Source: Myxococcota bacterium
Lineage (GTDB): Bacteria > Myxococcota > UBA4151
Direction: 5' to 3'
NCBI GenBank assembly: GCA_036338695.1
Contig: JAYZBQ010000063.1
Coordinates: 1-53,366 of the forward strand
Length of the DNA stretch: 53,366 nt
Shown here: positions 12,354 through 16,938 of the stretch, one piece after another
Position numbering within the stretch: the first letter of the stretch is position 1
Layout of the letters: every line of letters starts with the position of its first letter
Translations under genes and position numbers: made by a program
Notes under the pieces: model-generated
What the model was told of the DNA's origin: nothing
The model's database searches: none
The model's input: only the letters and a program-made list of their open reading frames with translations

Positions 12354-14633
12354 GTGAACCTTAACGGCTTGAGCACCGCCGCAATCTGGGCTTCGCTCGC
12401 CTTGGTGCTGGCGAACTGGCGGCTCGTCCAACTTGAGCGCCTGCTGCCCAAACCAGCGCCCCCCGGCCTCAACTGGGTTCGTAGCCTGTCTCTGCTCAGC
12501 CTGATCACCCTGCTCGCATGGGGCTTAGGCTACGGTAATCTCGACCCAGCCTACGCCCGCCTCGTTCATCAGTTCACCTGCCTGAGCGTCGCGGCCTCGT
12601 GGCCGATGGCATTCGAGGCCATCTGCGACCTGGTCGAGCGGCGTCCGAGCGACGGTGTTCGAGTGACGATCTGGGTGGCGATGATCATCTCGGGCTTCCT
12701 CACCGCTGCGTTCGGCTACGGCGAGCCCATCGCCAGAAGCCTCCCCGCCTTCGGCGCCAACTACAGCATCGCAAGCGTTGCAGGATGGGTACTCTACGGC
12801 AGCTTCATGATGATCGCCACGCTGATCGGGTCGGTCGTCGTCATGCTCAAGCTGACGGAGCGAGCGAAACGCCACCTCATCCGACCGGTGGCGCTGGGCG
12901 CGCTGCTGATGGCCGCGACCCTCGTCAACGACCAGCTCAGCTCGCGTCAGCTGATCGTCAGCCCCTACCTCACCGTCTGGGGGGTCTGGCTCTGGGTGCT
13001 GAGCTTTGCGCTGACCTTCGAGCGCATGACGAAGCAACGCGTCAACGACCTTCAGCAGCGCACCGAGCGCGCGCTGGAACGAACGCGCGCACGCAGCGCC
13101 TTCCTCGCCAACATGTCGCACGAGCTGCGCACGCCGCTCGGCGGGCTCATGGGGCTCACCGAGCTCCTGCTGGCGGACCAAACCCTCACGTCGCGCCAAG
13201 AGCAGCTTGCGCATGCGCTTCAAGGCTCCAGTCATCGCCTGCGCCTCTTGATCGATGAGGTGCTCGAGCTCGAAAAGCTTGAGCTGGGGACCAGCGCCCT
13301 CACGGGGAGCGCTTTTGCGGTCGCCCCCTGGCTGGAATCGATCAAGCGGCGCGCGGAGGACCTGAGGTCGTCTGAGGACGTTACGATCACCAGCAGCCCG
13401 CTCCCCGACGAGCTCGTGGAGTCAGGCTTAGTCGGTGACGCCGATCGGTTGGGTAAGGCGATCCTGAACCTGCTCGCCAATGCGCTGCGCCACACCCAGC
13501 GAGGTTCGGTCAACATCGCGCTGCGCTTACGTTCACTGCGCGACGGCGTTGCAGACCTACGCATCTCGGTGCGCGACACCGGCTCACGCATTGGTCGCCC
13601 GACACACAGCCTGAGGGACACGATGCACCGCGACCGTCTGAGTGATCAGCTCGCTGACGACCCGAACCTCTCGCTCGCGCTCGCGCTCCGGCTCACCGAA
13701 TTAATCGGCGGCCGGCTGCACCTGCAAACAGCGTCCGGGCTTGGAACCACGTACACCCTCTCCATTCGGCTCCCCTACGCACCCAGCGACCAACTCCCCC
13801 CAAAGAGGGACAAAGGACATGAGCCTCACCCGGTTAAGCATCGAGAAGACCTCCTAAGCCGACTCAGGATTCTCGTGATCGATGACCACCCGGTCAACCG
13901 GATCGTCACCGCCACCCCCTTAGAGCAAGTCGGCGCAGCGGTGGACACGGCTCCATCGGCGATGGAGGGGCTCAAGCTCATCGAAACGCATGCCTACGAC
14001 CTGCTCCTCATCGATCTGCACATGCCTGAAATGGACGGTGTCCAGGCGACCGAATTGCTGCGCCGCCATGAGGCCGAAGGTCGTTGCGCACACCAAGACA
14101 GGCTCCCGGTCATCGCCGTGAGCGCCGACGTCACAGAAGCGGCTCGTACCGCCTGCCGCGAGGTCGGGATGATCGGCTTCATCGCAAAACCCTACGCCCG
14201 TCATACGCTCATTCAGGCGGTCGCAGAGACGCTCGGTCGGGATCAAACCGTGATGAGCGCCATCGCCGGAGACGCCAGCGAGGACGCTCTAAACGTCACC
14301 TTGGCGATGGTCGATGGCAACCGCGCGCTCGCCGCGGACATCCTCGACGAACACCTGAAACGCACGCCGGTCTTAATCGCTCAGCTCGATGCGGCGCGAG
14401 CGACCGACGACTTCGAGACCATGGCGATGGTCGCGCACGCGCTCAAAGGCTCCTTGTTGACCCTTGGCTTTCATGGCGCCGGAGAAGCAGCCAGGACCCT
14501 CGAGGAAGCTGCACGCAGGAACGACCGAGAGGGCTGCGAGCCAGCAACGCAAGCGCTTTTGACTCAGCTCGAGCACGTCGAGTCCGTGATCTCAGACGGG
14601 CTCGCTCGATGGCGAAGGGACGCCGATGTTTAA
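12354..14633 (+). CDS. Hybrid sensor kinase 1: multi-TM sensor, HisKA, degenerate HATPase, REC, HPt
   Basis: H-box FLANMSHELRTPL; N-box LNLLANALRHT; G1 DTGSRI; no F-box; G2 replaced by DDPNLSL; REC IDDH...LIDLHMP...IAKP; HPt AHALKGS. GTG 12354 with AGGAG RBS. Confidence 0.92.
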   Translation: MNLNGLSTAAIWASLALVLANWRLVQLERLLPKPAPPGLNWVRSLSLLSLITLLAWGLGYGNLDPAYARLVHQFTCLSVAASWPMAFEAICDLVERRPSDGVRVTIWVAMIISGFLTAAFGYGEPIARSLPAFGANYSIASVAGWVLYGSFMMIATLIGSVVVMLKLTERAKRHLIRPVALGALLMAATLVNDQLSSRQLIVSPYLTVWGVWLWVLSFALTFERMTKQRVNDLQQRTERALERTRARSAFLANMSHELRTPLGGLMGLTELLLADQTLTSRQEQLAHALQGSSHRLRLLIDEVLELEKLELGTSALTGSAFAVAPWLESIKRRAEDLRSSEDVTITSSPLPDELVESGLVGDADRLGKAILNLLANALRHTQRGSVNIALRLRSLRDGVADLRISVRDTGSRIGRPTHSLRDTMHRDRLSDQLADDPNLSLALALRLTELIGGRLHLQTASGLGTTYTLSIRLPYAPSDQLPPKRDKGHEPHPVKHREDLLSRLRILVIDDHPVNRIVTATPLEQVGAAVDTAPSAMEGLKLIETHAYDLLLIDLHMPEMDGVQATELLRRHEAEGRCAHQDRLPVIAVSADVTEAARTACREVGMIGFIAKPYARHTLIQAVAETLGRDQTVMSAIAGDASEDALNVTLAMVDGNRALAADILDEHLKRTPVLIAQLDAARATDDFETMAMVAHALKGSLLTLGFHGAGEAARTLEEAARRNDREGCEPATQALLTQLEHVESVISDGLARWRRDADV

Positions 14634-16938: not shown

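Follow-up and report, generated by a model that had tools for sequence, protein, structure and literature searches.

Can two hybrid histidine kinases, each lacking part of the machinery for a phosphorelay, form one working kinase between them? The question is raised by a pair of tandem genes, here called HK1 and HK2, on a 53,366-nucleotide stretch of DNA from a Myxococcota bacterium (GenBank assembly GCA_036338695.1, contig JAYZBQ010000063.1; the whole stretch is referred to as the window). Sensor histidine kinases are usually treated as homodimers. Neither HK1 nor HK2 alone carries the full set of H-box, ATP site, receiver (REC) and phosphotransfer (HPt) domain, while jointly they are complete. 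Comparative sequence analysis demonstrates the common origin of the two genes, their complementary residues, the conservation of these residues and the co-occurrence of the pair. The pattern of losses makes it probable that HK1 and HK2 are a heterodimeric split phosphorelay kinase, derived from duplicated GacS-type hybrid kinases by mirror-image losses, with HK1 as the predicted phospho-acceptor and relay subunit and HK2 as the predicted catalytic (ATP) subunit.

Complementary residues in HK1 and HK2

HK1 and HK2 are 28% identical over 641 columns, membrane part included (Table 1). Pfam detects HisKA, HATPase_c and REC in both proteins and Hpt in HK1 only. A profile built from the sensor domain of both genes had nine matches in 1.84 billion representative proteins, and since all nine were HK1- or HK2-type, the two genes can be regarded as a tandem duplicate.

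HK1 retains an intact H-box, all receiver residues (D510/D511/D554/S590/K612) and the HPt histidine. In its ATP-binding (CA) domain the N-box Asn376 and the G1 Asp408 are still present, but the second glycine of G1 is Arg412, the F-box is missing and G2 reads DDPNLSL. HK2 mirrors this state, with a canonical ATP site (N371, D402-G404-G406, F416, G432-G434-G436) and receiver (E501/D502/D545/T581/K603), a Gln in place of the acidic residue that follows the H-box His (position H+1), and no His in its HPt-like domain. All residues, coordinates and the 8-bp gene overlap named in a first-pass annotation of this DNA were confirmed. That annotation also called the ATP lid of HK1 eroded, which is correct in that the canonical boxes are lost but undersells a lid that appears remodelled and strongly selected within the genus (see below). 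A frameshift artefact as the origin of the lid was rejected, as both alternative frames are interrupted by stops and lack canonical G1, F and G2 boxes. Gln255 as a sequencing error was likewise rejected, the same lesion being present in homologues and in independent marine contigs.

Within the HK1 lid, D427-D431 (13632-13646) contains an invariant R-L-S-D that fits the short RxxD motif, a match likely to arise by chance at such length. RxxD is a cyclic di-GMP motif, and four GGDEF matches were found in the genome. In HK2, Glu262 at H+8 is invariant in all 15 HK2-type proteins and present in none of 107 control kinases. The model of the His-less domain of HK2 is an HPt-like bundle; its best match was a plant HPt (Z 12.3, root mean square deviation [rmsd] 2.9, 114 aligned residues), a Z score that is middling for helical bundles, and Foldseek returned no match to it at E 0.001 (best E 0.085). 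Past residue 129 of the domain, where the conserved tail lies, the model is mostly unstructured.

Conservation of the losses within the class

The sampled class of marine Myxococcota comprises six genomes in two genera. HK1 and HK2 were adjacent, in the same order and in the same neighbourhood in all six, and were adjacent in both of two metagenome loci, one of them cut by a contig end. Start and stop overlapped at 8/8 loci. The first-pass annotation had given weight to this overlap, which is indeed conserved but ordinary here, as three of seven other neighbouring gene pairs checked near HK1/HK2 likewise overlap. A single-sequence search missed the sister genus (0/2), which a profile search then found. 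Outside the class, a phylum sample of 401 genomes gave only four weak matches (E 1e-4 to 1e-6); with approximately 1.5 kb of flank viewed, these were not accepted as members, three being intact NtrB-type seven-transmembrane (7TM) kinases and one a truncated protein.

The His, H+1 Glu and H+4 Thr of the H-box, the receiver residues and the HPt His are intact in all 12 HK1 sequences, and the lid is non-canonical in all 12. Among the 15 HK2-type proteins, one is a fragment, and the N, G1, F and G2 boxes are canonical in the 14 that have the domain. The HK2 H-box is inactivated in 14/15 (His-Gln in ten; His replaced by Asp, Tyr, Lys or Ala in four), and four of the 15 lack both the His and the H+4 Thr while the ATP site is canonical. 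The complementary lesions and the co-occurrence of the genes, which the first-pass annotation had proposed to look for in homologous pairs, are thus both found. Within the genus of the window, homologue searches yielded seven HK1 and seven HK2 clusters, all sharing the lesions, and the same lesions recur across proteins that are 47-100% identical.

As controls, 111 canonical hybrid kinases were chosen by REC-HPt similarity; 110 of these were aligned, and in 107 the H-box columns were occupied. All 107 carry His-Glu, and every filled G1, F and G2 column is canonical, which argues that the HK1/HK2 lesions are not due to chance. Contigs of four public marine runs differed from the window at nine positions over 12200-17100, none of them in either H-box or the HK1 lid; Q255 was covered in three of the four runs, and a listed piece spanning the HK1 lid in one.

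Selection was assessed from mean identities among eight non-redundant sequences of each protein (the near-duplicates P0003, L009, P0040, L016 and HK2 of L017 were left out). For HK1 these means were 0.81 in the dead CA domain (lid, 0.88), 0.65 in the receiver and 0.94 in DHp helix 1; for HK2 they were 0.67 in the canonical CA domain (lid, 0.81), 0.81 in the receiver and 0.98 in DHp helix 1. Within the genus, the dead CA domain of HK1 is therefore better conserved than both the live CA domain of HK2 and the receiver of HK1. The ratio of nonsynonymous to synonymous differences (pN/pS) was 0.06 for the HK1 CA domain and 0 for the lid (0.00-0.07 over both), from few sites in the single pair whose synonymous sites were not saturated. 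On these figures strong selection acts on the remodelled HK1 lid in the window's genus, and relaxed selection, the pattern that the first-pass annotation had set against its own reading, was seen within the genus neither in the identity means nor in pN/pS.

Losses in the sister genus and the distant homologues

The two genomes of the sister genus (G004 and G005) carry both sets of losses further. In their HK1, HELRTP, the receiver and the HPt His remain, the N-box Asn and the entire lid have disappeared, and Pfam detects no ATPase. Their HK2 consists of 7TM, DHp and CA only: Lys or Ala stands in place of the His, the H+4 Thr is missing, and the receiver and HPt-like domain are deleted, while N, G1, F and G2 remain canonical and the gene is still joined start-to-stop with HK1. 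Between G004 and G005, identity in HK1 is lowest in the CA domain (0.41) and higher in the receiver (0.59), HPt (0.58) and DHp helix 1 (0.69); in HK2 it is 0.68 in the CA domain, 0.54-0.56 in the DHp and 0.74 in the lid. Judged by these identities, the HK1 CA domain is strongly conserved in the window's genus and relaxed and lid-less in the sister genus.

Two further HK2-type proteins, P0065 (His to Asp) and P0066 (His to Tyr), have canonical ATP sites. In a tree of the sensor and DHp, P0065 falls within the His-Gln clade (support 100/99) and P0066 with the sister genus (97/96); in a quick rooted tree, the HK2 orthologue P0070 lies beside the His-Gln clade (91). Because the His-less forms sit at two separate places, the HK2 acceptor site appears to have disappeared on more than one occasion and through different changes. 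The split between HK1 and HK2 received 72/68 on the sensor and DHp tree, where long branches meet, and 94 on a quick cytoplasmic tree that includes the trait columns; with long branches and trait columns in the trees, the order of the loss events is uncertain. No partners of P0070, P0065 or P0066 were found by an HK1 REC-HPt profile, a weak search in which 7999 candidates were scored. Arranged by state (His-Glu, His-Gln, His lost, receiver and HPt deleted), the homologues make up a natural gradation in which the path from a duplicated homodimer to an obligate heteromer could be followed.

Proposed mechanism

In the mechanism that we propose, HK1 and HK2 would assemble as one heterodimeric kinase, in which the intact ATP domain of HK2 would phosphorylate His256 of HK1 in trans. 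The phosphate would pass from ATP on HK2 to HK1 His256, from there to HK1 Asp554 and HK1 HPt His695, and finally to an unlinked response regulator. With the HK1 CA domain dead and transfer in trans, the His of HK2 would never be phosphorylated in the heterodimer and would be free to decay, whereas the His of HK1 would be essential. A trans heterodimer that phosphorylates only the HK1 His could account for the invariance of that His, the repeated loss of the HK2 H-box and the retention of the HK2 ATP site; cis transfer predicts the opposite pattern of loss. It is from this pattern that we infer the heterodimer, the trans geometry and the order of the relay. The first-pass annotation had advanced the same relay; its comparative tests were passed, and the sister genus strengthens it by having lost the HK2 His outright, although P0070, which keeps His-Glu, does not fit, and that such a heterodimer would be obligate, as the annotation had it, is more speculative.

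The nearest solved structure to the HK2 core is 7z8n (E 6e-43), which aligns gap-free across the DHp loop and which we take to be GacS from the spacing of residues I302 and L309. GacS and BarA phosphorylate in trans, His-less and ATP-dead mutants complement each other in vitro, and the G2 glycines of GacS are needed to bind ATP (PMC8498467). The H+1 Glu-to-Gln mutant of CrdS, E372Q, is kinase-dead and phosphatase-competent (PMC3510030). Two premises of the first-pass annotation, that the acidic H+1 residue is needed for autokinase activity and that many histidine kinases autophosphorylate in trans, are borne out by CrdS (PMC3510030) and by GacS and BarA (PMC8498467), respectively. Our literature search found no natural active kinase with Gln at H+1. 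By analogy, HK1/HK2 could be a natural counterpart of the GacS mixed-mutant pair.

Some of the conservation exceeds what a pure split into donor and acceptor would lead one to expect: in the window's genus, DHp helix 1 of HK2 (0.98), its receiver (0.81) and the dead CA domain of HK1 (0.81) are all overconserved, which suggests that extra functions exist. The invariant His254 and Thr258 of HK2, its receiver, tail and H+8 Glu, and the conserved lid of HK1 may hint at a phosphatase side, an additional acceptor, and a part played in structure or allostery. Speculatively, the His-Gln-x-x-Thr face of HK2 may persist as a phosphatase side in the window's genus, the HK2 receiver may be a second acceptor or sink, and the remodelled HK1 lid is probably structural or allosteric in function. 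A tentative picture, which we regard as possible but doubtful in its entirety, is of a relay kinase that has no form other than a heterodimer of two 7TM receptors resembling G-protein-coupled receptors (GPCRs) and whose asymmetry is hard-wired. One face, the HK2 ATP site on the HK1 His, would be permanently a kinase; the other, the HK2 His-Gln helix under a repurposed HK1 lid that perhaps binds a second messenger, would be phosphatase or allosteric. Two membrane sensors would then feed one relay, and the relatives would form a stepwise series from complete kinase to bare catalytic subunit.

Alternative explanations

Several observations weigh against a split kinase. SHELRTP and a canonical CA domain are both present in P0070, an HK2 orthologue that has the pseudo-HPt and the tail; in one lineage at least, HK2 can thus be self-sufficient. 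In the window's genus, the DHp loop of HK1 is one residue longer than that of HK2. ArcB-like hybrids act in cis. Another kinase of the genome, at G000:C22:15240-16241, has Asn at H+1 and adjoins an ordinary OmpR-type regulator. Two of the six class genomes are frameshifted in one gene of the pair (HK1 of G003 and HK2 of G002), and the six genomes in two genera are kin rather than independent samples. DivL keeps N, G1, F and G2 and binds ATP weakly, with no kinase activity (PMC4211667), so the intact motifs of HK2 do not prove catalysis. By analogy, a His-bearing, ATP-dead kinase can serve other ends, as RedE and RetS illustrate. The two-sensor AND gate suggested by the first-pass annotation is speculative, and in FasB, a membrane kinase of Streptococcus pyogenes, the membrane domain is dispensable when the protein is overexpressed (PMC12675982).

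That the two proteins have separate jobs without shared catalysis, HK2 as a kinase-dead phosphatase or sink and HK1 as a RedE/RetS-like protein fed by or binding another kinase, is unlikely. The change from Glu to Gln at H+1 is kinase-minus and phosphatase-plus in CrdS and probably in NtrB (PMC3510030), HK2 keeps its His, Thr and receiver in the window's genus, and the genome has other intact hybrid kinases. RedE of Myxococcus, which does not autophosphorylate, takes phosphate from a receiver (PMC2755868), and RetS, which cannot bind ATP, heterodimerizes with GacS (PMC8498467). However, the four HK2-type proteins without the His have also lost the phosphatase Thr at H+4 and still have canonical ATP sites, the sister-genus HK2 has no receiver to act as a sink, and the genes stay overlapped at 8/8 loci. 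An arrangement resembling RcsC/RcsD, in which an HK2 homodimer would be an autokinase feeding its own receiver and then the HPt of HK1, with HK1 His256 secondary, is decidedly unlikely. It would suit the better conservation of the HK2 than of the HK1 receiver in the genus (0.81 versus 0.65), the position of the pair's only HPt His on HK1, and P0070, which has exactly this layout (intact kinase and receiver with a His-less HPt) and may represent the ancestral state. Yet it is inapplicable to the sister genus, whose HK2 lacks His and receiver alike, Gln at H+1 abolished kinase activity in CrdS (PMC3510030), and HELRTP of HK1 is invariant (12/12).

We consider it very unlikely that both proteins are non- or weakly catalytic scaffolds like DivL, with HK2 sensing a phosphorylated regulator or nucleotide and tuning HK1 or another kinase allosterically. 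DivL itself is His-less, keeps the four boxes and has no kinase activity (PMC4211667), and the invariant surface Glu at H+8 and conserved tail of HK2, like the conserved remodelled lid of HK1, are unexplained by catalysis. On the other hand, the full His-Asp-His relay of HK1 needs a phosphate source, the lid is the best-kept part of the sister-genus HK2 (0.74), and the His site of HK2 holds four different replacements where DivL conserves one (Tyr). Decaying duplicates or assembly errors without any joint function are extremely improbable and largely refuted. Frameshifts do break HK1 of G003 (an extra A in an A-run) and HK2 of G002 (a short deletion at a small repeat), at L010:9004-9010 and L012:540-552, but these are probably assembly errors themselves, because close relatives are intact. 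The same lesions across proteins 47-100% identical, pN/pS values of 0.00-0.07 over the HK1 CA domain and lid in one unsaturated pair, independent marine contigs that match the window, and synteny in 6/6 genomes all speak against decay. Taken at the level of sequence, the HK1/HK2 lesions are neither decay nor assembly error, and the split heterodimeric kinase remains the reading that we prefer.

Genomic setting and sensor domains

The genome that contains the window's contig (C63) is 3.36 Mb in size and 93.6% complete, and the stretch is present in marine, seawater and estuary metagenomes. Annotation tools would label HK1 and HK2 each as an ordinary kinase or a pseudogene.

Table 1. Features of the HK1/HK2 locus, in window coordinates
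Feature	Position	Strand	Description
Upstream membrane-anchored protein	11556-12293	-	Divergent from HK1; kept there in 6/6 class genomes
HK1 gene, 759 aa	12354..14633	+	GTG start, CAGGAG upstream; 7TM sensor, DHp (intact H-box), pseudo-ATPase (CA), REC, HPt
HK1 membrane sensor	12354..13070	+	Seven predicted helices, beta-hairpin between helices 4 and 5; GPCR-like fold, no Pfam family
HK1 H-box MSHELRTPLG	13113..13142	+	His256 at 13119-13121; HELRTP invariant in 12/12 HK1
HK1 pseudo-CA	13434..13775	+	N376 and D408 retained; Arg412 for the G1 Gly; other sequence in place of F and G2 boxes (13575-13676)
HK1 receiver	13854..14234	+	Asp554 at 14013-14015; all five catalytic residues in 12/12
HK1 HPt	14289..14603	+	His695 at 14436-14438; His in 12/12
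HK1/HK2 start/stop overlap, 8 bp	14626..14633	+	1, 4 or 8 bp across all 8 loci examined
HK2 gene, 770 aa	14626..16938	+	7TM sensor, DHp (His-Gln H-box), canonical CA, REC, His-less HPt-like domain, conserved tail
HK2 H-box MSHQVRTPLTEIRG	15379..15420	+	His254, Gln255 (15388-90), Thr258, Glu262 at H+8
HK2 CA	15691..16035	+	Canonical N (15736), G1 (15829-15843), F (15871), G2 (15919-15933)
HK2 receiver	16105..16485	+	Asp545 at 16258-16260; well conserved in genus, deleted in sister genus
HK2 pseudo-HPt four-helix bundle	16528..16845	+	Arg687 (16684-86) at His position
HK2 C-terminal tail RQSFETAAYPQGKTQEFPD	16846..16905	+	Mean identity 0.91 in genus; recognisable in P0070

Pfam gave no match to the upstream divergent membrane protein (11556-12293). 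A class II aldolase gene and a DJ-1/PfpI-family gene lie downstream of the pair, and no response regulator gene adjoins it among the neighbouring genes checked. Each of the six class genomes has two Hpt matches only, one of which is the HPt of HK1. A stand-alone CheY-like receiver without a kinase beside it is encoded at 24566-24946 on the minus strand and kept in 6/6 class genomes, with 79-85% identity in the genus and 47-48% to the sister genus; it is a candidate output for the HK1 HPt. A second hybrid-kinase cluster (G000:C88:31437-38828) contains two canonical tandem kinases, one of which bears the single remaining HPt of the genome, and a third, divergent gene in which Ser replaces the H-box His and the ATP site looks degenerate. 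The genome has 15 HisKA matches, of which two, HK2 and the kinase at G000:C22:15240-16241 (minus strand), have a non-acidic H+1 residue. One genome record (L014) is titled Hydrogenedens, yet its locus is syntenic with those of two Myxococcota-titled records, and it is probably mislabelled.

The sensors of HK1 and HK2 are seven-helix domains that are homologous to each other. The model of the HK1 sensor (predicted local distance difference test score 76) matched a designed GPCR-like fold (Z 16.6, rmsd 3.4, 211 residues) and a natural GPCR (Z 14.5, rmsd 4.0, 222 residues); as modelled, this likeness is one of fold only and says nothing of a ligand. No Pfam match above cut-off was obtained over either sensor, with HisKA_7TM and 7TMR-DISM_7TM among the families tested. 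In four weak distant relatives, 7TMR-DISM_7TM was below threshold in three and matched clearly in one. At L016:4800-5700, compared with L013 and L009, two loci that are 96% identical overall drop to 75-85% over the HK1 7TM coding region (12354-13070 in the window), where synonymous divergence is 0.66 versus 0.03-0.27 elsewhere; the HK1 sensor allele looks as if it had been exchanged by recombination.

Comparison with known systems

HK1/HK2 shares its His-Asp-His layout with GacS and BarA, and the HK2 core is closest to the solved structures 7z8n, 7n0e and 6dk7. The proposed DHp-DHp heterodimer of an ATP-binding kinase with a partner unable to bind ATP has a parallel in RetS-GacS, although GacS is complete alone and is inhibited by RetS (PMC8498467). 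Neither HK1 nor HK2 is complete, and their proposed heterodimer would be the active form. If this is true, nature would supply in the pair its own form of the mixed-mutant experiment classically used to test for trans-phosphorylation, each dimer having a single defined active site.

The H-box is intact in RcsC and the DHp His is missing from RcsD, whereas in HK1/HK2 the His sits on the HPt-bearing partner HK1 (12/12) and the HK2 H-box is intact in only one of the 15 proteins; P0070 resembles the RcsC state. What the enterobacterial RcsC/RcsD system (PMC12189002) has in common with the pair is a kinase-REC protein without a working HPt alongside an HPt-bearing pseudokinase. The sister-genus HK2 is comparable to DivL of Caulobacter, which is His-less with its ATP motifs kept (PMC4211667); the His is replaced in four of the 15 HK2-type proteins and kept in the HK2 of the window. 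HK1 in turn resembles RedE of Myxococcus xanthus, which keeps its His and does not autophosphorylate (PMC2755868). Neither DivL nor RedE, however, is a tandem duplicate whose losses mirror those of a partner. In CheA3/CheA4 of Cereibacter sphaeroides and Rv0600c/Rv0601c of Mycobacterium tuberculosis, the His domain and the ATP domain come from different genes. Unlike HK1/HK2, these proteins lack domains outright instead of carrying degenerate ones, and they are not duplicated membrane hybrid kinases. Two kinases with one regulator are confirmed in PMC3544749. Neither the HK1/HK2 pair nor any split hybrid REC-HPt kinase was found in the literature searched, most subscription journals and supplements being outside its scope.

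FasB and FasC of S. pyogenes are adjacent membrane kinases, of which FasC requires H246 while its ATPase is dispensable, the ATPase coming from the other partner; two-hybrid tests gave heterodimers and no homodimers, and transfer in trans was proposed (PMC12675982). This 2025 report calls heterodimeric histidine kinases rare, and in its available text phosphotransfer between the partners was not shown biochemically (PMC12675982). HK1 and HK2 are likewise adjacent, co-oriented membrane kinase genes, one of which keeps the His and the other the ATPase, as far as can be read from sequence. In contrast to FasB/FasC, where the kinases are simple, a ComE-like regulator is linked and FasB H284 is not excluded as an acceptor (PMC12675982), HK1 and HK2 are HisKA hybrids with receivers, GPCR-like 7TM sensors and no linked regulator, and both are visibly degenerate in sequence. 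By these comparisons HK1/HK2 would work like FasB/FasC, yet be no member of that family, and, if so, would extend split kinases to His-Asp-His phosphorelays.

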